Below, in pieces: positions 1-13,300 of a stretch of 64,000 nt of DNA (the first letter of the stretch is position 1; each line of letters begins with the position of its first letter). The stretch is from Haliea sp. (GTDB taxonomy: Bacteria; Pseudomonadota; Gammaproteobacteria; Pseudomonadales; Halieaceae): assembly GCA_031409615.1 (NCBI GenBank), contig JANNXP010000141.1, positions 25-64,024 of the forward strand, in the 5' to 3' direction. The notes under the pieces were generated by a model. The model had not been told where the DNA came from, made no database searches, and was given only the letters and a program-made list of their open reading frames with translations. Made by a program: the position numbers and the translations under genes.

Positions 1-1290
1 TACCGCAAAGCGCTTCTTGGCACGCACCTGTATCGGGTTCAGATTGGGCCGATCTAGGCCAGTACGGGCATACGAGAACCCTGCAAAGAGATCCCGGTGT
101 TGCTCAGGATCACTGACCACTGATACCAGGTGCTTAATCAGTGCTTCTCCGGTGGCACCAAAATATAAACCACAACTTGTTTTCAACTGGTCGACAAATT
201 CTTGGGTATCCTGCCCTCCGGTCTCAGGGAACATTTCTGCGGGTAGGGCAATATCCAGTATACGTACCCGTTGACCAGTGGTACCGGTACTCGATGAGGA
301 GTTCTCAACCTGCCATTCCAGAGGATACTCACCGGTACTGCCTATCTGGGTCTTCCAACGGTAACGCTCCCGCATTTGACGGTCACCCGTCATTGCGGAT
401 TTTCCAACCCCACCAGCGAGGTTGTAAATGACGCTACCCAGATCAGACATTTTATTGGTACCCACTTCATCCAGCGGCAAAAATATGTCATTGGCGCTCT
501 GTGCGAGCCCCTCAAGTGCGTTAGCGGTAGTATTCCAGCGTTGGATTATCGTGTCAGTTGGATTCTCCTCAGGGTCTGAACCATTGCCCCAGACACTGGC
601 CCCTACCTGAAGTGCGGTAGTCTTTCCCATGCTGCTGAGTCCATACAGGTGGAATCCCCCACCGGTGAGACCAAGTGGGCTCAAGAATGGGGCGGAACAG
701 GCCAAGCCACGGACAAATATCAGGTATGGATTGCCTTTGCATTTGTCGCTTACATGACGTTTCTCCTCTTCAATGGAGCAACTGGCATAGACCGAATGAT
801 GCACAGGTGACTTGCAGTCAGGGAGATGGATGGTATTTTCACCCTCAGTAACAACCTGGGTGGGCAGGGCAAAACCCTGTACTCCCATGGTGTCCGTAAA
901 CCAACCAATACGTTTCACAGCATACTCAGCTCCCACATGACGAAAGCTTTGTAAGTAGTGTAGGACTCTAGCCTGCTTGCCCGGAACGGTAGTGGCACCA
1001 ATGTCCATCAGCTTCTTGATCAGGCTGACTGCATTGTCTGCTATTAGCTGGGACCGAGGCGCATAATGATCACGTACCTCCCCGGAAACCACATCCAGAA
1101 ATTTGATGCGTACCAGGGTTGGAGAATCATCATCACGATATCGGATATTGGCATCAGACCAGATCAGGTCGCAGATTCGGTTGTCAGGGTGTACACTATG
1201 TTCATAGATGCCATGTGAGGTGATGACATAGCCTTCCGGTTGTTGGATACGGACTGTATTGCCATCAGGTAGGGTAACTGAAACTTCCAT
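1..1290 (-). CDS. DUF927-family ATPase/helicase (replication protein), partial, runs off window
   Basis: Manual translation: ATG at 1290 with GGAG RBS, at least 430 codons with no stop; GGFHLYGLSSMGKTT Walker A (619-642), RWNTTANALEG and LPLDE Walker B. Confidence 0.85.
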   Translation of the reverse strand, partial: MEVSVTLPDGNTVRIQQPEGYVITSHGIYEHSVHPDNRICDLIWSDANIRYRDDDSPTLVRIKFLDVVSGEVRDHYAPRSQLIADNAVSLIKKLMDIGATTVPGKQARVLHYLQSFRHVGAEYAVKRIGWFTDTMGVQGFALPTQVVTEGENTIHLPDCKSPVHHSVYASCSIEEEKRHVSDKCKGNPYLIFVRGLACSAPFLSPLGLTGGGFHLYGLSSMGKTTALQVGASVWGNGSDPEENPTDTIIQRWNTTANALEGLAQSANDIFLPLDEVGTNKMSDLGSVIYNLAGGVGKSAMTGDRQMRERYRWKTQIGSTGEYPLEWQVENSSSSTGTTGQRVRILDIALPAEMFPETGGQDTQEFVDQLKTSCGLYFGATGEALIKHLVSVVSDPEQHRDLFAGFSYARTGLDRPNLNPIQVRAKKRFAV

Positions 1291-1367
1291 AATAATATCT
1301 CCAAATTGAAATGACCGAACCGACATTGGTTCGATGGAGATACTCTAAATTTCGTTAGGTTGGACTA

Positions 1368-1407
1368 CTGGGTAGTAAGTAGTAGCAATTGAAACATAAC
1401 AACCTGA
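1368..1407 (-). promoter_or_regulatory. Degenerate copy of 40-bp palindromic box upstream of DUF927 gene
   Basis: CTGGGTAG-N24-CAACCTGA; same 24-nt spacer length, TAA start and ATAA end as the 6374 copy. Confidence 0.5.
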
Positions 1408-1516
1408 AATGATTCAGACTCGATTAGACATACAGTGCCAGTTTTTGTGTCTCCACCTCACGATAGCGGTCATTCTGGCCTGGATAAGTGCAGGGGCCGC
1501 TGCCACCTCACAGCGG

Positions 1517-1586
1517 TCCTACCGTAGAAGTCACCGGCGCTGCGCGGCTTTATCTCGCAGCGTCCGTCTGGACTGCCGGGTTAGGG
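1517..1586 (-). other. attC (59-base element) recombination site, R' mutated
   Basis: Minus strand CCCTAAC-CCGGC-AGTCCAGA-CGGACGCTGCG...CGCAGCGCCG-GTGACT-TCTAC-GGTAGGA; hairpin with bulged base; upstream ORF stop codon inside R''. Confidence 0.75.
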
Positions 1587-1814
1587 ATTGGGTCGACTAT
1601 CAAGGCGATGCTTTGCGTCAGCTATTAGCGACTCAAGCGCCCCAGAATCTCGCACCGAACTGACGACGACCTCTGCCATAGTTATCAATGCCTCGTCGTT
1701 AGACCCAAAGACTCTGAATCGGAGCTTTTGCCCATAGTCCCATATTTCGGCAGCGCAGCGATACGGAGGAAAAGCAGCTTCGATGTGTGAGCAAATATCT
1801 TGATCAGATAGCAT
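1581..1814 (-). CDS. Hypothetical 77-aa protein in integron-like cassette
   Basis: GGAG RBS within core-like GCTAGGA (1824-1830); stop TAA inside attC R''. Confidence 0.6.
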   Translation of the reverse strand: MLSDQDICSHIEAAFPPYRCAAEIWDYGQKLRFRVFGSNDEALITMAEVVVSSVRDSGALESLIADAKHRLDSRPNP

Positions 1815-1832
1815 TTGGGATGCTCCTAGCTT

Positions 1833-2270
1833 TTAGCGAAAGCGCTGGCAATAGACCTTTGAAATAATGAACGAGCCTGCTTGTTGATTGTCAGACCCGG
1901 AAACGATGTATTTCATATGCATACCCTGATCAAATGACCACTTGATGTCGTTGTCGGAGCAATTGCGCTGACCTATAAGTTCTTGCGCTTTAGCGAGAAA
2001 GTTCTGATCAAGATGAGCGGATGGGTAGTTCACCATCTTGATGTGATAGATGGTTGATGCTGTGCTTGCCTCAACTCTAGTGAGTTGCGTCTGGCTGTCC
2101 AGCATTGCCGGAAGCCCAAGATTCAAATCGACATTCGATTTAGCTGCCGCTTGCTGTTTATCTTGAAGAGTTGCAACTTGCTGAGGCGGTTTTTGAGCAG
2201 CGCGGCGTTCGATTTTGAAAATCGTCCAAACGAACACAACAACGATGATGATACCGATGGTCTTGAGCAT
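1833..2270 (-). CDS. Membrane-anchored exported protein, GspS/AspS pilotin-like or PA3611-like
   Basis: N-terminal TM segment; LPAMLDSQTQLTRVE...C...C pattern. Confidence 0.5.
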   Translation of the reverse strand: MLKTIGIIIVVVFVWTIFKIERRAAQKPPQQVATLQDKQQAAAKSNVDLNLGLPAMLDSQTQLTRVEASTASTIYHIKMVNYPSAHLDQNFLAKAQELIGQRNCSDNDIKWSFDQGMHMKYIVSGSDNQQAGSFIISKVYCQRFR

Positions 2271-2664
2271 ATAAACCGATAACAGTTAAGTGTACGGCAC
2301 CAACCGTATAACATGTTGCCGCCTAACACCAGAACGAGCATCCCGGAGGAACGGTTTTTCTATTTTTTCTCAACAGCTTAAAAATCTCGATTGTTATACC
2401 GTCAGGATAGTCTGCTCTCGCCGTATAACACCCTTCAGCACCTTTGTCGGTTTTGCCACTACTCAGGCACTGTTAGGATCGGCTGAACTGAATGCGAGTG
2501 GTTCGGTCTTTTTGATAGCACAGCTCAGACGGTCGCTTTTAGGCGAGGCTGTGTGAAAACGCAAAGACCGACAAAAGGAACTGAAAATTCTGGATTAATG
2601 GCTAGGTTAGAAAGAGACAACTTTAAAACCACTCTACTTCTGACCGCTGCTAAAAATGGGGGAA

Positions 2665-3141
2665 TTACCGAGGGTCATCCAATCTTAAAGCAGTAACGAC
2701 TCCATTCTCCGTGTTGCAGATGACGGATTGGTAGTATGTGGTGTCCCCTGAGGAGAGATTGTCGAAAAAGCCGCCCCCTGGATTCCTAACCTTTGGTTTA
2801 AAAGGCACCTCCTTCGCAGCGAGATAAATCTGGTATTTCATATACCCGACGACACGCGCCTCGTTACGCAAATTGGTACGTGAAGCGTAAGAACCATATC
2901 CGCTTAGATACGGGTCTCTATCTGGATAGGCGGACCTGACCGCACTCACACAACTCGCTATTGCATTATCTAGGTCACGGTTGGCAATTTTGTCCACATT
3001 GTCAGCAACCTCGTCCACTTTATTGCCACCTTCTATCATCACACCTATAATTTTGTCGCATCCGCTTAACAGCATCATCGCCCCAATGATTAGAGAGCCA
3101 CCAATCGCAGGAACCCAGTATTTCATAGTCATCGGCACCAC
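2665..3141 (-). CDS. Hypothetical lipoprotein
   Basis: Signal peptide with lipobox LLSGC. Confidence 0.6.
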   Translation of the reverse strand: MVPMTMKYWVPAIGGSLIIGAMMLLSGCDKIIGVMIEGGNKVDEVADNVDKIANRDLDNAIASCVSAVRSAYPDRDPYLSGYGSYASRTNLRNEARVVGYMKYQIYLAAKEVPFKPKVRNPGGGFFDNLSSGDTTYYQSVICNTENGVVTALRLDDPR

Positions 3142-3517
3142 CCGGTCAGCATTAAAGTGTCTAACGATAATGCTAGGTTAGACCCCTATGTTTTTACTGG
3201 AAACCGATAGATTACGCAAGTTCTTACATCTTTCAGAGCTGAGGATACTACCTTAGTTGACTGGATCAGTCGATCCCAAATCAACAGCTAGAAGAGGCAG
3301 CATACCCTGAAGGGAAGGTTAATTCTCTCTAACGCCAAGGGCCGCATTTAGGTGCGAGGCGGGAGTTCGTGCTCCAGGCTCAGCTAAGGCCGCTATAGAG
3401 TAGTAAAGCGGACGTACACCGGTGAGTTTTCGACGAGTAATTTTTGTCTTTTCCCACGTCAAAGCAGTACTTTCAGCAGTCATGACCTAGTGTCCGCTTT
3501 CATCAGGAAATTACGGT

Positions 3518-4075
3518 TCAAAATTTATTGCCCGCGCTTGGGTTTGACACTGGCCCTTCTCTGCCCCCCAGTGGTCTATTGAAGTACTCGTCTTTATAGT
3601 AGGAGTCTACTGAGCAACTATACTGCTCATACAGACCTTGTTGACGACCTCTGTACTTCTCCATCAAAACGGCACTTAAGTTTTTCCTATTTATGTGAAA
3701 CTCCATTCCAGTATCGTTCGATATTCTCCAGTCAACAAAATATATGATCGCGTAATTGGCATCACTAAAGTCAACATGTGTGGTATACCCCTCACTGGCG
3801 GTGTCGAACAGATTTATACCGCAGAAATATTTGTTGGCAATAAAACCGCCCTCTATCGCGTATTCCTTACCCCTCAATACGTGAACCTCTAAAGAACCGC
3901 ACCTATTTTTTCTGTAAGGCTTACATGAGAGAATCTTGTAAACTTCTAAAGACTCGCAGAATGAGTAGCTTCCATTATTTATACATAGCTTTTGCTTTGC
4001 GCTATCACACCCACCAAGGAAAAAGGCAATGACCAAAAGAAGGGGGATATATTTGGTATAATTGGCGATGCGCAT
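3518..4075 (-). CDS. Hypothetical lipoprotein
   Basis: Signal peptide with lipobox FLGGC; GGGAG RBS. Confidence 0.6.
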   Translation of the reverse strand: MRIANYTKYIPLLLVIAFFLGGCDSAKQKLCINNGSYSFCESLEVYKILSCKPYRKNRCGSLEVHVLRGKEYAIEGGFIANKYFCGINLFDTASEGYTTHVDFSDANYAIIYFVDWRISNDTGMEFHINRKNLSAVLMEKYRGRQQGLYEQYSCSVDSYYKDEYFNRPLGGREGPVSNPSAGNKF

Positions 4076-4173
4076 GAAAGCTCTCCCATCTCGAGTTTCA
4101 GCCGCTACATTTTGCTGTGATAAAAAACAAAGGTATTAACTCAGCTACTTAGTCTTAGATTAGAGAACGCGTC

Positions 4174-4545
4174 ATGATAAGTCAAATACTGGTGCTCTGT
4201 ACTTTTTTCTTGGTAGCGCCTGCCAGTGCCCAAGACAATTCCGACAAAGAAGCAGAAGAATTTATCGCTGCATTCACCCTCGAAACTGTCGTTGAAAAAT
4301 CTATTAATGAAGGAGCAGAAGGCCTTTATTATACCGGCTACCTGGATGCTGCGATCCATTCCGGTCAGTTCACGATAGCTCGAGATTCCGGATTGAATTA
4401 CTGTCCGCCTGGTAACCTAGCGGTTAACCATGCCACCGTTTGGAGTTCCTTCGATAGGTTCGCTGCCGCAAACTCGAAAAGCGCAACTCAAATGCATACG
4501 ATGCACAGCATCGTAACTTGGCTTTTGTGGATGTTCCCGTGTTGA
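4174..4545 (+). CDS. Rap1a/Tai-like periplasmic immunity protein
   Basis: Signal peptide, GYLDA...YCPP...FPC terminal pattern typical of Rap1a family. Confidence 0.55.
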   Translation: MISQILVLCTFFLVAPASAQDNSDKEAEEFIAAFTLETVVEKSINEGAEGLYYTGYLDAAIHSGQFTIARDSGLNYCPPGNLAVNHATVWSSFDRFAAANSKSATQMHTMHSIVTWLLWMFPC

Positions 4546-4801
4546 GGCGCGGCATGGGAAGCCGCGCTCACTGGCGCGAATGACCGCTATAAGTCGGCTG
4601 CGGCACTCAGGGCCAGTATAGCCAAAACGACCGCTTCTAGGTGCGATTAGAGACCTCCTGCTTCCGGATATTGCCCTTTTAAAAGGTCCGCTTCCGGGAA
4701 AAGTGGTTACTAGAGCTACGCCCGATAGTACACTATCTGTCGGATTCGCTCTGGTGTTTCACAATTACCCGGAATAGATTTTCTACATTTACCTCAGCAC
4801 T

Positions 4802-5980
4802 TTATGGAGGCGTTCCAAATCGTCGTGCAACGAGGGTTTTGATCCTAGCTTCGATGATGTTGTGTGTTTTTTCACCAGCAACACATTCACACCAGGAACG
4901 AATAATATCTCGAAGCTCAGAAGATTTCCCGTTTTTTGTCGGTAGCCCTATAGGCGTTGCTTCAAGTTCATAGGTGTAACCCTGCCGTTTTGCAAAGGAC
5001 ATATCATTCGATTGCGCCGCAACGGCAGAGATGTAGTTGTAGCGACTGTGTATAGCTTGGCCACCTTTCTTCAGTGCTTCTACATCTCGATCAATAGCCT
5101 TTTCGGTGTCCTGTGGCAGACGTCTAAACTGAGTATAAACATCAAAGTTCAATATATTGGTAATCAGGCGCACAGCCAAGAGAGTTGGCGCAATCAAACG
5201 AGCATCGACTTCTCGTTCAAAATAATTCAGATCATCAAGTTTCGCCTGTAAGTCATCTATGGTGGCCTCCAACTTCTCAATGAAAATGTCATCAAGAAAC
5301 CTTAGCTCCAAGCGTTCTGCCATTGGCGTAGTGATGGAGGTATAGAGCTGTCGGAAGTGCTTAATCGTGTTATCAATCTGTTCTTTTTCAGCATCAAGAT
5401 CTCGCTGTATTACCGAACCGGCAATTCCGCCGGATTTTTTGATAACCTCCTCATCTTCTTTATACATAGCAAACACCCTAGCGAGGCTTGCATAAACATC
5501 CATCCTGAAAAATTCCGGGTATGGTTCCTCATGCAGTTTCTTAAAATTTGCTTGGTCTAATGGAGCAAAGTGACGAAGATACTTTTCGGTAGTCGCTGAA
5601 ATTTGCGCATCCTTAAACAGCTCCTCGTATGCCTTGCACTTTTTTGCCGCGATGACTTTCGGCTTCCATATCTTGTCATAGTGAGACTGACTTACCGTTA
5701 CGTAATCATCAGCTGTGATCTCTGGCAAAATATCTCCAGTGTCCGGGTGAACCACCACAACACGACCATTGATATTTCTCGCTATAGGATCTAGACGGTG
5801 CATAAATATCTGTGCTCCCCCACTGTAGTCCTTTAAATATTCTCCTGTAGTAAATATGGTTCGGTCAGAAGATTTAGGCTCGTAGCCGTGTCGATCTCCT
5901 CCATAAAATGTGGCAGCAAAATCGCGTAGATCTCTGGCAGTTACACTGAACGCTTTACCTGGCTTTTTTGTTTTTGCCAT
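4802..5980 (-). CDS. Hypothetical 392-aa protein, coupled to the HTH gene
   Basis: Long ORF; TAATG stop/start overlap at 5978-5982. Confidence 0.75.
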   Translation of the reverse strand: MAKTKKPGKAFSVTARDLRDFAATFYGGDRHGYEPKSSDRTIFTTGEYLKDYSGGAQIFMHRLDPIARNINGRVVVVHPDTGDILPEITADDYVTVSQSHYDKIWKPKVIAAKKCKAYEELFKDAQISATTEKYLRHFAPLDQANFKKLHEEPYPEFFRMDVYASLARVFAMYKEDEEVIKKSGGIAGSVIQRDLDAEKEQIDNTIKHFRQLYTSITTPMAERLELRFLDDIFIEKLEATIDDLQAKLDDLNYFEREVDARLIAPTLLAVRLITNILNFDVYTQFRRLPQDTEKAIDRDVEALKKGGQAIHSRYNYISAVAAQSNDMSFAKRQGYTYELEATPIGLPTKNGKSSELRDIIRSWCECVAGEKTHNIIEARIKTLVARRFGTPP

Positions 5981-6312
5981 TAGGTGTCCATTCCTCGTGC
6001 ACGGGTGTTTATGGTGTCTACCTCAGCCAGATGCTTATATTTAGGTCGGGTGGCTAAAAAATGATCGAGGTCTGTCTTCAGGTACTTCACAGGCTTGCCA
6101 ATCTTAATGAATTTGGGTGGATCGCCACCATCGGAAATAATTCCTGTCTTTCTGACCTTCTTGAGCCATTCCTCGCTCATGCCAAGGTAGGTCGCTGCCT
6201 CGCTGGTATCCAGTACCAGCCTGTCAGAGCGGTCCAAGGAAGACGATCTGAGCGTGCTGAGAATCGCCTGAAGTGTACTGTCTATCTTTGAAATGTCGAT
6301 GATGTCGTTCAT
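5980..6312 (-). CDS. Excisionase/AlpA-like helix-turn-helix protein
   Basis: LDTSEAATYLGMSEEWLKKVR...PPKFIKIGKPVKY, downstream of integrase. Confidence 0.8.
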   Translation of the reverse strand: MNDIIDISKIDSTLQAILSTLRSSSLDRSDRLVLDTSEAATYLGMSEEWLKKVRKTGIISDGGDPPKFIKIGKPVKYLKTDLDHFLATRPKYKHLAEVDTINTRARGMDT

Positions 6313-6373
6313 TGTCTGGCCTATTTGACTCGGTTGACTGTGAACGAAATATATCGATCACCGAACTAGGTAG

Positions 6374-6413
6374 CCGGGTAGTAAACACATCAAAATCGCG
6401 CATAACTACCCAG
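6374..6413 (-). promoter_or_regulatory. 40-bp palindromic box upstream of xis
   Basis: CCGGGTAG-N24-CTACCCAG, plus extra CTAGGTAG at 6366-6373. Confidence 0.6.
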
Positions 6414-6419
6414 GCTAAT

Positions 6420-7682
6420 TTAGTCCGCCAATAACTCAACAGCGCCTGCCTTGTGGTCCTGAGCCAAGTGAGCATACCGGAGCGTGGTTCCCAGATCCGA
6501 ATGTCCCAATAACTCTCGTATAGTGTTCAGAGGCACACCGAGCATCACTAGCCTGCTAGCGAAGTGATGCCGTAAGTCATGGAATCTGAAGTCAGTAATA
6601 CCAGCAGATGCCAATACAGACTGCCACGCCGTCTTGATATCCACAAACCGGTTTTCGTTTCGGTTCTTGAACACCCAACCAGAACAGGGTGATTGCTGTT
6701 TACTCCAACTCGTTAATACCTCCATAGCCCGCTTGTTCAGGTTTACATGGCGCACCTTGCGGGATTTAGCATTAGCCGCCCGTACGGTGATTACTTTTTG
6801 ATCGAAATTAACGTCATGCCATTTCAGGCAAAATATCTCTCCTTTTCGAAGACCCGTATTAATGGCTAATAGCACCATAGGTTCAATATGGTCTACAAAC
6901 TCCCCATCCTTGAATTCGGGATACAATTCGTACCCTCGGTCTGCACGCCAGTCGTTGGCACTGGCCCTAGCTTCTGCTAGCCCACAGTGACGAAGCCGGA
7001 GGGCTTTATAGAGACTCCCCTCCTCCACCTTCGACAGATAACGGATCATCTCATCGTCCTCCTGCCTGAGGTTCTTCACTTCGGCTAGCGGATTCGTATC
7101 AATATGCTTTGTTGCAATCGCTCTTGAGAACACAGCCCGTAAGCAAGTCAGATTGCGATTAACTGTTGCTGGCTTAACTGGATTACCCTGCTTGTTGGTC
7201 CGGGCCAACTCCCCTACCTGCCACTTTTCGATCTCGGCAGCTGTAATCAGGGCTATTGGCTTGCTCATCAAGTGGTCAAAATAACGATTCAGCACATAGA
7301 TGTTTGAGCTACCTCTTTTGTTGTGCTTCAGTACCCATGGCTCGTAGTGCTCCTCAATAAATACACGCAACGTCATCGCTTGATTTCGAATCGCATTGTC
7401 TCGCTTAATCTGCTTCTCCGCTTGGGGATCTTTACCTGTGGCAATATCCCCTGCCGTGGCTTTTGCCATTTCCCGAGCTTGGGTTAGAGTCACATCCCCA
7501 TGCCTACCTAGTTTCAACCTGACCCGTTTACCCGTATTAGACTTATAGCTAAAATAGTAAGTCCGTCTACCGGTGGGCTGTATCCGCAACAGAAACCCTG
7601 GCAACTGAATATCAACTGCTTCATAGGGCTTGGCTTCGGGGATCAGTGAAATAATGCTCTTTTCAGTAAATTTGATTTTCAT
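6420..7682 (-). CDS. int: Tyrosine recombinase/integrase with N-terminal arm-binding domain (P4-like)
   Basis: TGLRKGE, HDLRHH, LGH, RYAH catalytic motifs; GFLLRIQPTGRRTYY arm-binding N-terminus. Confidence 0.93.
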   Translation of the reverse strand: MKIKFTEKSIISLIPEAKPYEAVDIQLPGFLLRIQPTGRRTYYFSYKSNTGKRVRLKLGRHGDVTLTQAREMAKATAGDIATGKDPQAEKQIKRDNAIRNQAMTLRVFIEEHYEPWVLKHNKRGSSNIYVLNRYFDHLMSKPIALITAAEIEKWQVGELARTNKQGNPVKPATVNRNLTCLRAVFSRAIATKHIDTNPLAEVKNLRQEDDEMIRYLSKVEEGSLYKALRLRHCGLAEARASANDWRADRGYELYPEFKDGEFVDHIEPMVLLAINTGLRKGEIFCLKWHDVNFDQKVITVRAANAKSRKVRHVNLNKRAMEVLTSWSKQQSPCSGWVFKNRNENRFVDIKTAWQSVLASAGITDFRFHDLRHHFASRLVMLGVPLNTIRELLGHSDLGTTLRYAHLAQDHKAGAVELLAD

Positions 7683-7741
7683 TGGAACCTCTCTAGTCTG
7701 TTGAACTGGATCAACAGCCTAAGGAGGAAAGACATTGATAT

Positions 7742-7781
7742 CTGGGTAGCTAAAGGCATCAAAATGCGAATAACTACCTAG
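7742..7781 (-). promoter_or_regulatory. 40-bp palindromic box upstream of int
   Basis: CTGGGTAG-N24-CTACCTAG; shares CATCAAAAT and ATAA with the 6374 copy. Confidence 0.6.
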
Positions 7782-7822
7782 GTGGGAAACCTGAACGGAC
7801 TGCATTCAGATGGAAGCAAAAC

Positions 7823-7944
7823 TTAAGTCCGTATTAAGTCCTTAAGTCATACTCTCAGGGATTCTTCAGTACCCCCTGCATAACCATTAACCTGTATCCA
7901 ATCAAATATTAACTGAATATAATCAATGTATTACGGGGTACTGA
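7823..7944. repeat. Short repeats beside att (candidate arm-type sites)
   Basis: TTAAGTC(C/A) x3 (7823, 7834, 7842); perfect IR TCAGTACCCC (7866-7875) / GGGGTACTGA (7935-7944). Confidence 0.5.
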
Positions 7945-7984
7945 AAGGTACTAGGGCAGTATGAGACAATAGCCCAGAATCGCT

Positions 7985-8029
7985 CTCCTAAGGGGAAGGC
8001 CGCGTGTTCGAATCTCGCAGGGCGGACCA
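7985..8029 (+). tRNA. 3' half of tRNA-Arg(CCT); att-site remnant, not a complete tRNA
   Basis: Anticodon loop CTCCTAA, GGGGA, T arm GCGTG-TTCGAAT-CTCGC, AGGGCGG-A-CCA; no matching 5' half upstream. Confidence 0.75.
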
Positions 8030-8483
8030 CTAACATACTGATATATAACATTGTATATTGAATTGGTGGAATTGTTATTTGGAGTAAATCTCCTCGTAAG
8101 TGCAACGGGTCACACTTCCTTCGATTCAGGCGTCGCACATATAGGTTAGATTCACAAATTGCGATCGCGAACAGAACAAGCCAAAGAGTATCTACCAGCG
8201 GCATGAATCAAAAGTTAAATAACGGCAAGCCTGAAGACTGCCTGAAGTGAGGCTCGCCTTTATTTCAATAGCAGACGACCCAGTAAACCGAACGTCTTAT
8301 TGAAATTCTAGCAGTTTGCGTCGTGGTCAACCTTAGAGATATTAGTGTTGTATCATCTTTGAACTCCGACTGGCCGATGCTACTTAAGATGTAGTTATTG
8401 TTCAGTGTCTGCCTGATAAACTGGTTCACGCCGGACTAAGGATACCGCTGCATGGATAGCACACAGGATTATATAAAGATGGA

Positions 8484-8641
8484 GCAACGCAGGCTGACAT
8501 TGAACCAGTAGGTTCCGACTTCATTCTTAACGAGGCCATTGGCACCCGCGGTGAGCAATCGACTTCAGGACAGCAGGCAAGGCTGTGGAGTCGCACAGGC
8601 AAGCTGCTGGCGACGACCGAAAACTGGGCTGGTTCAGGTAA
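8484..8641 (+). pseudogene. C-terminal remnant of a thioesterase-family gene
   Basis: DFILNEAIGTRGEQSTSGQQARLWSRTGKLLATTE then 1-nt frameshift into LGWFR*; no start codon. Confidence 0.45.
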
Positions 8642-8706
8642 GCGGGCCGTAAGGGGATTTATAAGTTAGCTGTCCTGCCTGCTCGGCTGCGCCAGTGATG
8701 ATCGGA

Positions 8707-9384
8707 TCAGCACAGCTGAACACCCACTGCGGTTGAAGGAATGCGATGGCGGGTAGTGATGCCCAGTGCACACAGACCCAGCGCCATAAGTGCCAAGGTG
8801 TTGGTAATCGGAACCGATGACGCAGTGGCATTCCGTACGAACCACGATCCCGTTACCCCGTCCTGATTACCCTTAAGCGTACCACGATCAGTATATGCCC
8901 ACTGAACGAAAGTACTGGGTGGGGCGGAGGCCGCCACCATTAGGGTGAGGTACGGATTGCCATCGAAATCGAGAGTACGGACGATCGCAGAAATAGCGGC
9001 GCTCCTCGAAAACTCTTCCTGCGGCGTCGTGAGCAAAAAGCCGTCGTGAGTCATGCTGAAAATCCAGCTATTGCCGAATTCAATTAGATTATCAGGCCCA
9101 GGGCCCAGCGCCGTAGATCCCAGGTAATAGTTAAAGAGACCATTCACATTGTCGACACTTGCCCAAGTCCAACCTGTGAGATCGTTGCCCCCCAGGGAGC
9201 CATTACATGACCCGGATGAGGCATCACAAACCGTATTGATGTCGTTCCAGCTATAGCCAATGAAATCCACCGGTTGCAACCATTCCAGCCCACTCACCGT
9301 GACGGGGGGCAGCAATGCGGCACTTGCAGATCCGGCCGTCAAAGAGATTAACAAAACAACCAATAAACCTGTTTTTCTTATCAT
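8707..9384 (-). CDS. PEP-CTERM-type exported surface protein (degenerate sorting signal)
   Basis: Signal peptide from ATG 9384; C-terminal VPITNTLALMALGLCALGITTRHR; paralogous to 9699-10367. Confidence 0.75.
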   Translation of the reverse strand: MIRKTGLLVVLLISLTAGSASAALLPPVTVSGLEWLQPVDFIGYSWNDINTVCDASSGSCNGSLGGNDLTGWTWASVDNVNGLFNYYLGSTALGPGPDNLIEFGNSWIFSMTHDGFLLTTPQEEFSRSAAISAIVRTLDFDGNPYLTLMVAASAPPSTFVQWAYTDRGTLKGNQDGVTGSWFVRNATASSVPITNTLALMALGLCALGITTRHRIPSTAVGVQLC

Positions 9385-9698
9385 TAATAATTCCCTCGTC
9401 CTGTCAGCTGCCAGTTCGTCTTGCATTCCCATACTGCACTATACGACAACGCAGTGGAAGACTGGACAAGATCATGTGTAAACCTCCCCATTTTAGTGAA
9501 ATCCCAAATTGGAGTTTTCCGCCCGCTCATGTTTGGCCAGATACTCCCAGTGTAAACCTCCATATAAACTCCAAAATGTACTGCCAGAATTTCAATTAGC
9601 CAACAATGACAGCACTGGCAAAGGCGAAGGCCGCTGGGATTGATGTGGATAAGGCTATTGCTGTTAGTGGCGTGGGATACCTGAACCCGGTTGGGGGG

Positions 9699-10367
9699 TT
9701 AGGTGTGTTGCTTTTGCTTCCGGCGAGTGTAGCCAAGAGCAGCGAGGCCCAAGCCTAGTAGGGGCAGGGTTGCGGGGACGGGGGCTTCTGTTGGTGGTTC
9801 TGATTGGTCACGGAAAAACCAGCCTCCGCGCGTGGGAGACACAGTGCCCACCCCAGTGAACTGGTCTGACGAAAAGGTGTCCGTCCGAGTTTCCGCTGTC
9901 CCGTCTTGTATGCTTGTTGAGTAGGCTAGCCCGGACCCATTGAGGTTGCGCAAAATGCCGCGCATACGACACTGGCCCGAGGGGCCAGCCTCACAGTCCA
10001 AGGGGATGAAGTCTTCAAAGAACGCCGGGGCCCACAAAGAATTACGCTGCGTGCGATTGCCCGGGACGAACGGATGCAAAAGGGGAGAAAAACCTGCGTC
10101 CGAGAGATACACATTAAATAAGCCGTTGATCTCGTGAATTCCCGCCCACATCCAGCCCGTTAAATCATTGCCGCCAGCACCCCCGGTGCAAATACCTGTG
10201 CTCGCGTCACACGCAGTGGCGATATCATTCCAGCTAAGATTTACAAAATCTCTCGGTTGTAACCACTCCTGCCCATTCACTGCAACGGCCGGCATCAATC
10301 CGGCATTCGCAGCCCCAGCCAAGCTAAACACCAGTGCGGCCATTGATCTACCAATTGCCTTGAACAT
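9699..10367 (-). CDS. PEP-CTERM-type exported surface protein
   Basis: Signal peptide; C-terminal VPATLPLLGLGLAALGYTRRK. Confidence 0.85.
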   Translation of the reverse strand: MFKAIGRSMAALVFSLAGAANAGLMPAVAVNGQEWLQPRDFVNLSWNDIATACDASTGICTGGAGGNDLTGWMWAGIHEINGLFNVYLSDAGFSPLLHPFVPGNRTQRNSLWAPAFFEDFIPLDCEAGPSGQCRMRGILRNLNGSGLAYSTSIQDGTAETRTDTFSSDQFTGVGTVSPTRGGWFFRDQSEPPTEAPVPATLPLLGLGLAALGYTRRKQKQHT

Positions 10368-10406
10368 CCTTATTCCCCATTATTCTATTCACGATCAATT
10401 AGACAG

Positions 10407-10421
10407 GCAAAATACGAGCCA
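10407..10421 (-). promoter_or_regulatory. Sigma-54 -24/-12 promoter
   Basis: TGGCTCGTATTTTGC with GG-N10-GC spacing, 40 bp upstream of the PEP-CTERM gene. Confidence 0.7.
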
Positions 10422-10474
10422 CGTCAATAAACACGTTGGTTGTGGCTCTACCTCTCGCGACTTGGCGGGGTTGT

Positions 10475-10491
10475 TGTAAAGAATCCTGACA
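10475..10491. promoter_or_regulatory. Candidate enhancer (bEBP) site
   Basis: TGTAAAGAATCCTGACA (TGT-N11-ACA) upstream of the sigma-54 site. Confidence 0.45.
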
Positions 10492-10613
10492 ACTCAAAGT
10501 GGGCGCCAAATACCGCAATCATCCCAGCGGGTCGTATTCTTCGTCATCCTCAATCGGCGCATTGTCCCAGCAGTTTCCTCGGCGACTCATGCTCTGCTGC
10601 ATGCGGTAGATGA

Positions 10614-11720
10614 TTACTTCCTTCGCTCAATTGCATTGAACGCCTGAGTGACGCGTTGTAGGTAGTTGTCTACGTAAAACTTTTCTATTGCTTGCTGAAC
10701 GGCCTTCCCTTCAGGTAGTGTTTTTCCATCGACTATTTGCTGTAGTAGTTCGGCTAACTTTTCTTTGTGCCCTGAGGCATATAAGCTGCCATTAACAGAC
10801 TCAGCAATAATTTCCAGTGGCCCCGTTTCACAGTCAGAACTAATTGCATAAATTCCATATGAATTAGCCTCCAGCAGAGCCATTACCAACCCTTCGTATT
10901 TGGACGTCAATATGAGGCTTGTTACCTCGCGCAGCGATTCCGTAATATAGTGCCACGGGTCATTTTGCCAACCATGCCATCGGATCTGGCCTGTAATATT
11001 TAGTTTATTGGCAAGTGCTTTTAACTCAAATTCATCTTCGCCTGAACCAACAATATTGAGCATCCAATCGCCTTTGACAAAGACTAACGCTTCAAACAAT
11101 TCGCGCATATTTTTCTGCCCATCGGCAATCACGCGACCAACATATATGAATTGTTTAGTTTTTTCTGGTCTTGGAATAATGACTTCATGACGGGGTACAG
11201 GATTGTAAATTGTAAATATCGTCTTTCCATCAACTCCCATTTCGATGAGCTGATTTGTAATTCCGTCACTAATGGAAAGGTGACCATCCGCTCGACATAG
11301 ATATCTTGCCCTTGACATGCTGGTTACAGAAAAATGGACCCATGAAAGAACAACAGTTTTATGAAATGAAAATTCGCGAGCCATAACACTAATAAAACAA
11401 AGAATCGGATCCAAGCTAAGGATCAAGTCTGGTTTTTCATGACGAAATATTTTGCGTAGAGAATTTGCAAGAAACAAACGCCCTAATTTGCGGTGTCTGA
11501 CTGGTGGGGTAATTTTGCAGTAAGCCTGGCCAGCCAGCCAGTCATCGTTCACTTCCCTTCTAACTTTCCTATTCGTTTTTGCCGCTCTAAAAAAAACTAA
11601 TGAAATATTGATCGTTGGTTCACTAGCTCTAAGTAGCGTAATGAATCTAAGGATGACGGTTTCCATGCCGCCCAACCCGCTGAGTTCATTGCCTACGATG
11701 ATCACTCTATTTACTTCCAT
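10614..11720 (-). CDS. waaB: GT4 glycosyltransferase, LPS 1,6-galactosyltransferase WaaB-like
   Basis: [43 protein letters not shown] motifs colinear with enterobacterial WaaB. Confidence 0.75.
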
Positions 11721-11781
11721 AGAGACGTACTCCGCGTTGATTCACAATGAAAGTTTCTCTCATAGTGAGATCTACTAGATG

Positions 11782-11810
11782 TTGCATGAATACCGTGTAT
11801 CCGGTATTTT
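11782..11810 (+). promoter_or_regulatory. Sigma-70 promoter with operator for higBA
   Basis: TTGCAT-N17-TATTTT; ATACCG-N6-CGGTAT palindrome at 11790-11807. Confidence 0.7.
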
Positions 11811-11816
11811 CGGCAT

Positions 11817-12106
11817 ATGATCACATCATTTGGCAACAGGGCACATCTGACCTATTTCACGGCATACCTAGCCGCTATGCCAGAAAGCTGCCAAGCCAAA
11901 TACACGAACTCGCGCTGTACAAGCTCGATGTTCTGAATGCTGCTCAAGCCCTTGATGACCTACGCTCTCCTCCGGGAAATAGGCTCGAGACTTTAAAGGG
12001 TGAACTTAAAGGCTTTTGCAGCATTCGCATTAATTCCCAGTGGCGTATCATTTTCCGCTGGATAGACAGTAGCGCCACCGATGTTCAAATTTTGGACTAT
12101 CACTAG
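11817..12106 (+). pseudogene. higB: HigB (RelE/ParE family) toxin with 1-nt deletion near 11842
   Basis: MITSFGNRA in one frame, TSDLFHG...DLRSPPGNRLE...SIRINSQWRIIFRW...DYH in another. Confidence 0.75.
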
Positions 12107-12123
12107 CACTTGAGAGGTATCAT

Positions 12124-12414
12124 ATGATTCCCAGCAATAGAACAGCAACACATCCAGGAGTCATTTTGCTCAAAGACTTTCTTGAGCCACTGGAATTGAC
12201 ACAAACGGCATTGGCGGCACACGTCGGCGTCCCGGTGCAACGAGTAAATGAAATTGTTCGTGGCAAGCGCGGCATTACACCAGAAACAGCATGGCTTCTT
12301 TCTGAAGCATTGCGTACAACTCCAGAGTTTTGGCTTAACCTTCAGTCCACTCATGATTTATCTGCAAATCGTCCCGATCATCATGTTGGGCCTTTGGTTG
12401 CTGCGGGCATGTAA
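12124..12414 (+). CDS. higA: HigA antitoxin (HTH-XRE)
   Basis: THPGVILLKDFLEPL...RVNEIVRGKRGITPETA...FWLNLQ. Confidence 0.92.
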   Translation: MIPSNRTATHPGVILLKDFLEPLELTQTALAAHVGVPVQRVNEIVRGKRGITPETAWLLSEALRTTPEFWLNLQSTHDLSANRPDHHVGPLVAAGM

Positions 12415-12465
12415 CAAGACCATGTTGCGGACAACTTACGGTTGCCGCAAATAGCGGCGTGAAGG
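12409..12465 (+). other. attC site terminating the higBA cassette
   Basis: ATGTAAC-AAGAC-CAT[G]TTGC-GG[A]CAAC-TTACG-GTTGCC-GCAAATA-GCGGC-GTGAAGG; two bulged bases; higA stop in R''. Confidence 0.7.
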
Positions 12466-12539
12466 CCCACTGACTAACTAATCCCGATGATTTATGCTAT
12501 TACTGAGCGGCAAACTACGTCCACATCGAGGCTATTCAA

Positions 12540-12866
12540 ATGACCGTCAGAAAAATCGTTAGTTGCTTTGCGTTACTCACTGTCTTCTTTGCAACCGCGT
12601 CCATAGCCGTAGCACAAGACGGTAGCACTACTGGCTCTACGCCAACTCTGGTAGCTCCTGATACCGATGCCTTTGAGCAGGAAAAAGCAGAGGCCAAGGA
12701 ACCCGCTGGCGAATGTTGTCATACTAGAGGGGTTCCAGAGTGCGGCGGTGCTTGCGATATTTGTTGCGAGACGGGCGAACAAGCGTCCTGTGTCGCGGGT
12801 AGCTGCGATCCGAACAACACATTTGCCTGCACGTGTGCAGTGACCACATCGTGCAGTTGTAACTAG
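12540..12866 (+). CDS. Secreted cysteine-rich small protein
   Basis: Signal peptide, acidic/Thr linker, 12 Cys in the last ~50 aa. Confidence 0.7.
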   Translation: MTVRKIVSCFALLTVFFATASIAVAQDGSTTGSTPTLVAPDTDAFEQEKAEAKEPAGECCHTRGVPECGGACDICCETGEQASCVAGSCDPNNTFACTCAVTTSCSCN

Positions 12867-12889
12867 TCGCCGTATACAACGTGTGTCTG

Positions 12890-13300
12890 CTAAGGGGCAG
12901 GCACAGTACGGTGCGGATACAATTCAGCGGTCAGGCGGTAGAGCGCGGTGTCGAAACTATCCTCCGGATGTTCTTTGCAATACTTTTCCAGCCATACCAT
13001 GATCGTTTTCGTGTTCTTTTTGCCGGCAATATCGTAGGTGTTAGGCGCTAATCTGTTGATGGCCGTTAGATAGCCCATGGTGTACAGCGAAAATTCGTAG
13101 AGGGTGCCCCAGTTATCCTGGTCCTTGGCCTTGCTTAACGCGCCATTGAGTCCTGCACAACTTTCTACCGCGCTCATTGCTCGCACCTGATACTGCCTGT
13201 CTGTATCCGCAGCAAAGCCAGGGGCACTTGTCACGGACAACACAACAGCCAACAGGACGAGGGGACAACTGCGGCGCGGCGGCATCACAGTAGGCCGCAT
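12890..13300 (-). CDS. Exported hypothetical protein (HdeA/Rap1a-like helical fold?)
   Basis: Signal peptide; SC...GYLTAIN...WLEKYCKEHP; TGATG overlap with upstream gene. Confidence 0.6.
   Translation of the reverse strand: MRPTVMPPRRSCPLVLLAVVLSVTSAPGFAADTDRQYQVRAMSAVESCAGLNGALSKAKDQDNWGTLYEFSLYTMGYLTAINRLAPNTYDIAGKKNTKTIMVWLEKYCKEHPEDSFDTALYRLTAELYPHRTVPAP

Follow-up and report, generated by a model that had tools for sequence, protein, structure and literature searches.

A decayed attC site and a probable stranded two-gene integron cassette in the hotspot of a P4-integrase element of Haliea sp.

The window considered in this study, 64,000 nucleotides of contig JANNXP010000141.1 from Haliea sp., opens within a small integrative element that encodes a P4-type integrase, and at positions 1517-1586 of its minus strand (all positions are those of the window unless a contig is named) that element holds a decayed attC site and with it cargo of the integron type. 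I consider it likely that the stretch 2282-1523 (minus strand) is one integron-type cassette, consisting of the genes p145 and p77 and ending in the attC site, which was inserted by an integron integrase (IntI) and is now stranded. In current nomenclature this is a SALIN, a single attC with its open reading frames (ORFs) and with no integrase or other att site nearby, and not a cassette array. An array is what a sequence-only reading of the same DNA had proposed: a decaying series of cassettes carried as the cargo of a satellite-like element that has no IntI.

On the minus strand the site is made up of R'' CCCTAAC (1586-1580), the spacer CCGGC, L'' AGTCCAGAC, a GC-rich central hairpin, L' GGTGACT, the spacer TCTAC and R' GGTAGGA (1523-1517), and the TAA stop codon of p77 lies within R'', as had been noted from the sequence. 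The geometry is canonical, with an R'' of 7 nt, a gap of 5 nt and an L'' with extra bases on one side of the hairpin, and L', a gap of 5 or 6 nt and an R' of 7 nt on the other. The length of 70 nt falls within the 57-141 nt of attC sites, and six lineages have the site in this position, directly 3' of an ORF in the same orientation. Measured against RYYYAAC, R'' retains AAC and has C instead of a purine at position 1. R' departs from GTTRRRY: G1523 is the conserved crossover G, and the triplet that begins with it reads GGT, not GTT. The relatives of the site have R' sequences GTTAGGG, GTTGACC, GTTAATT and GTTCGAA, and the window copy is a damaged member of the attC family, not a non-member. 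No part of attC is more conserved than the AAC and GTT triplets, which flank the cleavage point, and the site in the window is probably no longer functional.

The first line of evidence is a covariance model (R1) made from 15 distinct attCs of class-1 integron arrays on eight plasmids, each checked to fold as attC. Long attCs were trimmed to 30+30 nt, the sequences were aligned, and the R-box and L-box pairs were set; as a home-made model it gives only rough E-values. In a positive control it recovered about 20 known attCs at 17-68 bits, long and untrained ones included. Run with filters off over positions 1-8200, it gave a full-length alignment at exactly 1586-1517, with AGUCCAgAC and GGUGACU placed as L'' and L', CCGGC and UCUAC as spacers, and the extra bases on the L'' side, at a weak score (8.1 bits, E 1.6 in 16 kb). 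Besides this alignment it gave a match to the R boxes alone at 3183-3159, and it gave none at 3333, 2327, 1830 or 2612. Three matches of 9-14 bits occur in the remaining 55.8 kb of the window, and the window copy, taken by itself, therefore lacks significance; what gives it weight is its homology with copies that are significant. These lie after a DUF1652 gene in metagenomic contigs, and in each case the homologous site is the top R1 match of its contig: 20.2 bits in L098/L099 (E 0.0036), 12.8 in L111, 11.7 in L095 and 11.3 in L083. In the reverse test, an nhmmer profile of the site family found a single copy in the whole window, and its best non-family matches among the sequences compared are the class-1 attCs of aadA5 and gcuC. 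The attC core pattern had no match in viral contigs.

The homologous sites share the layout and differ in sequence. The site reads CCCTAAC-ACTGC-GCTCCAAG, a hairpin and CTGAGC-TTAGG-GTTGACC in L083; CCCTAAC-ATGGC-GCTCCAGG and, after the interior, GCTTGAGC-TAACAC-GTCAGCG in L098; CCCTAAT-ACTGC-GCTCCAAG and, at its other end, TGAAC-GTTCGAA in L112. L111 runs from CCCTAAC to GTTAGGG, a perfect R box. In an alignment of five lineages, 80.5% of the cells are paired, as compared to 27-37% in controls with the partners slid, in what is a small sample. Compensatory changes are present at 4 pairs, in the L boxes and the central stem (in the L box, for example, the window has AGTC/GACT where L083 and L098 have GCTC/GAGC), pairing in helix 2 is complete (100%) and includes two of the compensatory pairs, and the crossover pair C7-G65 is invariant. 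CCTAAC is invariant in the five aligned copies; L112 has CCCTAAT. The six bases after the crossover G, in contrast, differ by context (TCAGCG, TTGACC, TTAATT, TTAGGG and GTAGGA), as cassette boundaries predict of the outer bases of R'.

The second line of evidence comes from populations. Contigs of four freshwater-sediment metagenome runs were placed on positions 1-8200 of the window. The depth over the element is 4-7, as compared to about 560-710 at 1539-1565, in 13-17 contigs per run; it is about 60-100 over 1521-1529 and 1566-1583 and at background past 1584. The stretch of about 62 nt between 1523 and 1584 is thus roughly 100-fold over-represented in the source sediment metagenomes. Loose contig ends are concentrated in 1523-1533 and, at the far end, in 1565-1567 and 1583-1584, and the contexts diverge at CTAAC (1584) and at G1523. 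After G1523 the other copies continue with TTGAGT, TTGACC, TTGAAG, TTAAAG, TTGAAT or TTGGGC, that is, with TT and then mostly purines, where the window has GTAGGA; their upstream halves read GCCCAAC-CCTGC-RTTCCAC or have GG before CTAAC. The site is joined to many contexts, which switch at G/TT (the stroke marks the crossover), as is characteristic of an attC family in high copy number that joins unrelated cassettes. No other depth spike occurs in 1-8200, a palindrome at 3183-3159 (considered below) included. The hairpin that the sequence-only reading had picked out at 1517-1586 is thus confirmed by evidence independent of that reading: the model scores of homologous copies, compensatory changes and context breaks, with a weak alignment of the model to the window copy itself.

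The site closes a unit of two genes. The first of them, p145, encodes an N-terminal membrane helix and a conserved domain of about 100 aa with two near-conserved cysteines, and its 24 homologues are all metagenomic. On most of their contigs a gene for a 77-81-aa DUF1652 protein, corresponding to the window's p77, follows 15-27 nt downstream; this arrangement is seen in L083, L087/88, L095-102 and L111, and in L112 the DUF1652 gene follows a different gene, of 194 aa. The neighbors on both sides of the p145-p77 unit are wholly different from one contig to another, and the similarity between contexts ends just past the hairpin downstream of the DUF1652 stop codon. The stretch had been divided into separate units, 2327-1830 and 1830-1523; comparison makes of it one two-gene cassette, with its 5' end between 2283 and 2282 and not at 2327.

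At that end the unit begins, according to context, with GTTAGGG (L095, L089, L111 and L112), ATTAGGG (L087) or CTTAGAG (L098). TTAGGG is the complement of CCCTAA in the unit's own R'', which is expected of a cassette linearised at G/TT. In the contigs that carry p145 homologues, a few nt separate (G)TTAGGG from the start codon of the first gene, which follows it. In L112 it lies about 70 nt before the ATG, which has a ribosome-binding site of its own, and the motif is therefore not merely a Shine-Dalgarno sequence. Homology between the window and L083 begins at about TTATCG, probably a degenerate counterpart of (G)TTAGGG, which would place the cassette's 5' end at G2283/T2282. The breakpoint between L114 and L112 was considered as further junction evidence and set aside as uninformative, as it lies inside a gene. 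Just upstream of the junction (2277-2291, minus strand) the window has ACTTAAC-T-GTTATCG, in which a single base separates an R''-like heptamer from an R'-like one, and ahead of the related cassette of L112 stands a comparably short CAATAAC-N26-GTTAGGG (positions 8780-8819 of that contig).

The integrase that could have moved the cassette is absent from the window. A search of all 64 kb with IntI1 as query found nothing besides the element's own P4-type integrase, the sole tyrosine recombinase in the window, and there is accordingly no complete integron, with intI, an adjacent attI and a cassette promoter. The element's enzyme was rightly described as unlike IntI and as having an arm-binding N-terminus: it scores 51.8 bits with TIGR02249, against a cut-off of 265, it has an Arm-DNA-bind_3 domain, and it is 28% identical to IntI1 over the catalytic domain only.

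How the cassette came to its present place may be pictured as follows. Its source would be a cassette family whose attC sites, about 100-fold in excess in these freshwater-sediment communities, presumably lie in large arrays of chromosomal integrons. Acting in trans, an integron integrase would have excised the cassette as a circle, which was then inserted into the variable hotspot between the p392 and DUF927 genes of the small P4-integrase element, the target most likely being a non-canonical genomic (attG-like) site. Such an insertion, or else a later T-to-G change, would leave R' as G/GTAGGA instead of G/TTRRRY. With the crossover GTT/AAC triplet broken, the cassette can probably no longer be excised, and it would now travel only with the element, transcribed along with the other minus-strand genes. 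Isolated cassettes and insertion by IntI at genomic attG sites, with the consensus GWT in the case of IntI1, have been described (bioRxiv 10.1101/2022.09.11.507474), and capture by a trans-acting IntI, which the sequence-only reading had also supposed, is plausible.

Several points weigh against a single cassette inserted by IntI. The attC of the window is by itself sub-threshold, with about 0.5-0.7 chance matches of equal strength expected per 8.2 kb on the basis of the remainder of the window, and when longer flanks are included its minimum-energy fold leaves R'' and R' unpaired. The 5' junction TTATCG agrees with TTAGGG at only 4 of 6 positions, and G/GT is at odds with GWT, the consensus reported for insertion by IntI1 (bioRxiv 10.1101/2022.09.11.507474). 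No second attC or IntI was seen on the contigs that carry the unit, which are short, and so none of the copies was observed within a bona fide integron. No empty-site relative that would prove a precise insertion was found in a comparison with two distant relatives, and the depth figures come from assembler contigs, not from raw reads.

In a different history the cassette is real and was carried in within a longer DNA segment (for example, a portion of an array or of another island) through homologous or illegitimate recombination or by the element's own integrase. In its favor, the junction triplet GGT falls outside GWT. Both relatives of the element lack the 3.4-kb block 4801-1355 in its entirety, showing that the hotspot takes up DNA by means besides the insertion of single cassettes; related cassettes lie beside tyrosine recombinases other than IntI (L112), and a p145-type gene occurs in another P4-like element of satellite type (L084). 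A contig of 1165 nt from run X3, of higher depth (10.5), matches 1154-1552, and its other 766 nt are not at least 90% like the window's DUF927 gene; a variant element thus appears to share the attC-proximal junction and to lack the adjacent DUF927 sequence, which suggests recombination nearby. Against this, the flanks of the cassette contain no further attC of its family and resemble none of the contigs that carry the unit, so no larger shared block is visible, and the divergence from all other copies begins exactly at the canonical crossover G. I regard this history as unlikely.

Less likely again is the array as first proposed, in which 3333-1517 comprises 4-5 cassettes with boundaries at 3333, 3165, 2327, 1830 and 1523 and with attCs mutated past easy recognition. 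The heptamers that suggested it are all present on the minus strand where they had been reported, the core sites GTTAGAG (3333), GTTAGAC (3165), GTTAGGC (2327), GCTAGGA (1830) and GGTAGGA (1523) as well as the R''-like GTCTAAC (3183-3177), TTCTAAC (2612-2606) and CCCTAAC (1586-1580). Their recurrence, however, which had been taken for the grammar of cassettes, is at the level of chance: on the minus strand of 1400-3400, strict GTTRRRY is seen 3 times (2.1 expected) and strict RYYYAAC 3 times (1.95 expected), 33 sites of each kind appear if one mismatch is allowed, and two of the five claimed core sites, GCTAGGA and GGTAGGA, each require two mismatches.

Examined singly, most of the proposed boundaries fall away. 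At 1830, GCTAGGA corresponds to the ribosome-binding site of p77 (AGGAG, 8 nt ahead of its ATG). It falls within an operon that is conserved in every lineage with p77, the homologues all retaining the spacing of 15-27 nt and the AGGA. GTTAGGC at 2327 lies 44 nt upstream of the 5' junction found by comparison, and GTTAGAG at 3333 lies inside a doubtful 54-aa ORF and has no partner; neither has support from the covariance model, folding, repeats or comparison. TTCTAAC at 2612, as the start of an attC, leads to no hairpin, and the fold of 2625-2400 is not significant (z -0.35).

In favor of an array are a perfect R''/R' pair, GTCTAAC-N11-GTTAGAC at 3183-3159 (16 bits), an 11-nt repeat, TCTAACCTAGC, that joins 3182-3172 with 2611-2601, and TCCTAAC-AGTGC at 2478, which, read by eye, agrees with the 5' half of the attC family at 14 of 20 positions; older attCs, moreover, could be hidden by decay. 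Yet the filters-off search is silent at 3333, 2327 and 2612, the sequence at 2478 is matched by neither the covariance model nor the family profile and is rejected as a second family copy, and no depth spike or context break occurs anywhere else in 1-8200. Exact 11-mer repeats number 3 in 3.6 kb where about 1.5 are expected, and a perfect RYYYAAC with its complement turns up in 8% of shuffles of 8.2 kb. The gene p158 is an ORFan and offers nothing for comparison. What is left is one attC and one two-gene cassette: only one of the five proposed junctions is real and the true 5' junction was missed, so that cassettes are greatly over-called when heptamer grammar is judged by eye.

The remaining alternative, that the 1523-1584 hairpin is no integron site at all and is instead a repetitive extragenic palindrome (REP), a terminator-like element or a fragment of a miniature inverted-repeat transposable element (MITE) behind an operon, might appeal to a GC-rich hairpin of high copy number, to the lack of IntI or of a multi-attC array on any contig that carries it, and to a different palindromic repeat of about 110 nt that occupies the same place in L087 in both orientations, but it is highly improbable, given that real attCs and the hairpin family recognise each other reciprocally, that the R/L-box geometry has the 5/6-nt spacers and the extra bases on the L'' side, that AAC and G never vary and G/TT is the exact point at which contexts switch, that other copies have RYYYAAC-5 nt-L'' halves, that the stop codon lies within R'', that the unit opens with six bases complementary to its R'', and that there is no terminator T-run.

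The setting of the cassette, as listed in Table 1, is a low-GC element (44-52% GC, in a genome of 57-62% GC) whose right-hand part occupies the window from 1 to about 8050; its left part is off the window. The description of it as an integrative element of the P4 type holds, in that the core set of P4-like satellites is present: a P4-type integrase with an arm-binding domain, an AlpA-type regulator and a primase/helicase.

Table 1. Features of the element and its cargo. Positions run from the lower to the higher coordinate.
Feature	Position	Strand	Basis or remark
DUF927 primase/helicase-type gene, starts at 1290 and runs off the window	1-1290	minus	PF06048, E 4e-42; backbone
Variable cargo block between the p392 and DUF927 genes	1355-4801 (about 3.4 kb)	minus	Absent from L012 and L081
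Decayed attC site, 70 nt	1517-1586	minus	Covariance model, homologous sites, pairing counts, metagenome depth
p77, 77-aa DUF1652 protein, second cassette gene	1581-1814	minus	PF07865 in p77 and homologues
p145, first cassette gene	1833-2270	minus	24 homologues; alignment; AlphaFold2; Foldseek
Probable 5' cassette junction G/TTATCG (G2283/T2282)	2277-2283	minus	Homology with L083 begins about here
p158, predicted lipoprotein, cargo gene	2665-3141	minus	No evidence for cassette status
Perfect 7-bp inverted repeat GTCTAAC-N11-GTTAGAC, 25 nt	3159-3183		18 nt upstream of the p158 GTG start
p392, 392-aa protein	4802-5980	minus	
AlpA/excisionase-like HTH_17 protein	5980-6312	minus	PF12728, E 6e-7; conserved in L012 and L081; backbone
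P4-type tyrosine integrase	6420-7682	minus	PF00589 and PF13356 (Arm-DNA-bind_3)
tRNA 3'-end-like fragment (T-arm and acceptor end with CCA), 45 nt	7985-8029	plus	Sequence reading; adjoins the integrase gene

Only two relatives of the element, both distant, were found among genome and metagenome contigs, and none among viral contigs: L012, a Halioglobus metagenome-assembled genome, and L081, a metagenome contig. DNA homology to them is restricted to about 8050-6025 and to 1354-2. The integrase and DUF927 protein of L081 are each 75% identical to those of the window, and the DUF927 gene is 75-80% identical in L081 and L012. The intact L081 has the order integrase, helix-turn-helix protein, a 347-aa protein (28% identical to p392) and DUF927, with 144 bp between the last two genes. 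The homology gap and this short spacing together mark the window's cargo, about 4801-1355, as an insertion in a hotspot. Its limits, about 4801 and 1354, are unrelated to the heptamers that had been proposed as cargo boundaries. Nor are all cargo genes co-oriented, as had been stated: the ORF at 4174-4545 is on the plus strand. It encodes 123 aa with a typical signal peptide and overlaps a weaker minus-strand ORF (4359-4141).

No genes for the exploitation of a helper (capsid size redirection, packaging or helper derepression) were recognised in 1-8050 or in the complete relative L081, the remaining ORFs of which match no Pfam family, and the label "satellite" is therefore unproven. The tRNA 3'-end-like fragment, which is also present in L081 (about 5030-5075), is situated past the integrase gene and before the point where homology to L081 and L012 ends (about 8037-8050). 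It is probably a copy of the att core, in which case the intact tRNA would sit off the window, at the element's other end; no complete tRNA was called in the window by ARAGORN or Rfam, and the Rfam scan of the window matched no families. Past the end of the element the GC content stays low (42-53%) for about 5 kb (8050-13000), a stretch that has several ORFs without families and a GT4 glycosyltransferase gene (10614-11720) and is possibly a second island. One partial match to the attC model (14 bits) falls at 12414-12460 on the plus strand.

The palindrome upstream of p158 has canonical R'' and R' sequences and no L boxes, and the score of R1 on it (E 0.015) comes from the R box alone, the interior being skipped. 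It may be due to chance; it could otherwise be an attC remnant, a double-stranded simple recombinase site or an operator. Both copies of the 11-nt repeat (3172-3182 and 2601-2611, minus strand) start with an R''-like heptamer, and TAACCTAGC has a third copy, which is on the plus strand (4413-4421), inside the ORF at 4174-4545; the 11-mer count is within chance expectation. Among 5.8 billion proteins p158 has no homologue except itself, and the 380 nt downstream of its gene contain no match to the attC model and no significant fold.

As to what the cassette encodes, the AlphaFold2 model of p145 (predicted local distance difference test 74.6) has 3npd as its best Foldseek match (E 2e-4), followed by the pilotins 6i2v and 4ftf, and the predicted fold resembles PA3611 and the pilotins of type 2 secretion. 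In tblastn searches against plasmids p145 and p77 found no match, nor did they match known defense families, and PADLOC, PHROGs and NCBIfam gave nothing useful for the cargo proteins.

The contigs that carry related genes show settings of several kinds. In L112 (1166-9870) the related cassette, with its 194-aa protein, DUF1652 gene and attC with R'' CCCTAAT, is directly downstream of the gene for a 204-aa tyrosine recombinase unrelated to IntI and near genes with TIR_2 and PGDYG domains, in what looks like a defense island. L084 (with L085 and L086) encodes at 8026-8724 a 232-aa protein in which extra N-terminal membrane helices precede the p145 domain. It lies in a P4-like element with integrase, AlpA, RepB_primase, PriCT_1/AAA_25, Terminase_2 and Phage_P4_cII genes and has neither a DUF1652 gene nor an attC match. 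In L098 (740-2200) a p151-p81-attC unit and two small membrane-protein genes form an islet of lower GC between GC-rich host genes (DUF4124 and LysE-type), with no recombinase in the 2.8-kb contig. The contig L087 (about 40% GC) has three copies of its imperfect palindromic repeat (733-860, 1676-1795 and 4318-4440) between co-oriented small genes, and a second hairpin family at 1797-1862 and 4250-4320. These repeats are MITE- or REP-like; the ~110-nt ones, which have no R boxes and are found in both orientations, were rejected as attC and are palindromic repeats of another kind.

Stray cassettes show how integron cargo leaves its platform, and where a cassette is locked in a self-integrating element, one mobile system is concretely seen to feed another. 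The attC family, abundant in freshwater sediment, is a pointer to a large chromosomal integron as yet unsampled, and as a cassette the DUF1652/p145 unit is widespread. More speculatively, and with the odds well against it, the hotspot of small P4-integrase/primase elements might repeatedly act as a landing pad, with a resident IntI delivering the cassettes. That landing recurs is hinted at by the same cassette family beside a non-IntI recombinase (L112) and by the p145-type gene in a P4-like element (L084). Were it so, the cassettes of sedentary chromosomal integrons would gain a second route between genomes, dependent on a helper or on the element.

Among known systems, the CALIN is a cluster of two or more attC sites without an integrase (IntegronFinder, PMC9024848). 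The window shares with it an attC-type site without IntI, but a CALIN would have at least two attCs within a few kb and here only one has L boxes, the second candidate (3183-3159) having R boxes only and perhaps being due to chance. With P4-like phage satellites and other integrase-AlpA-primase elements, the element shares the arm-binding P4-type integrase, the AlpA-like protein, the primase/helicase-type gene, the tRNA-3'-like att fragment and a variable accessory hotspot; it differs from P4-like satellites in that no genes for capsid remodelling, packaging or helper exploitation were seen in the window or in L081. The cassettes of sedentary chromosomal integrons, such as those with Vibrio cholerae repeats (VCRs), likewise have a near-identical attC family in many copies and contexts within one community, an R'' that overlaps the stop codon, and small proteins of unknown function, although here array and IntI are not seen and the window copy is isolated and damaged. 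Closest is the SALIN (bioRxiv 10.1101/2022.09.11.507474), with one ORF unit and one attC outside an integron, without intI, attI or a further attC nearby, and with a non-canonical 3' junction as expected after insertion at a genomic site. The present case differs in having been detected by a home-made model and comparative data rather than by IntegronFinder, in a crossover triplet, GGT, that fits neither GTT nor the reported GWT, in a cassette that carries two genes, and in a host locus that is not the chromosome but the accessory hotspot of a small P4-integrase/DUF927 element.

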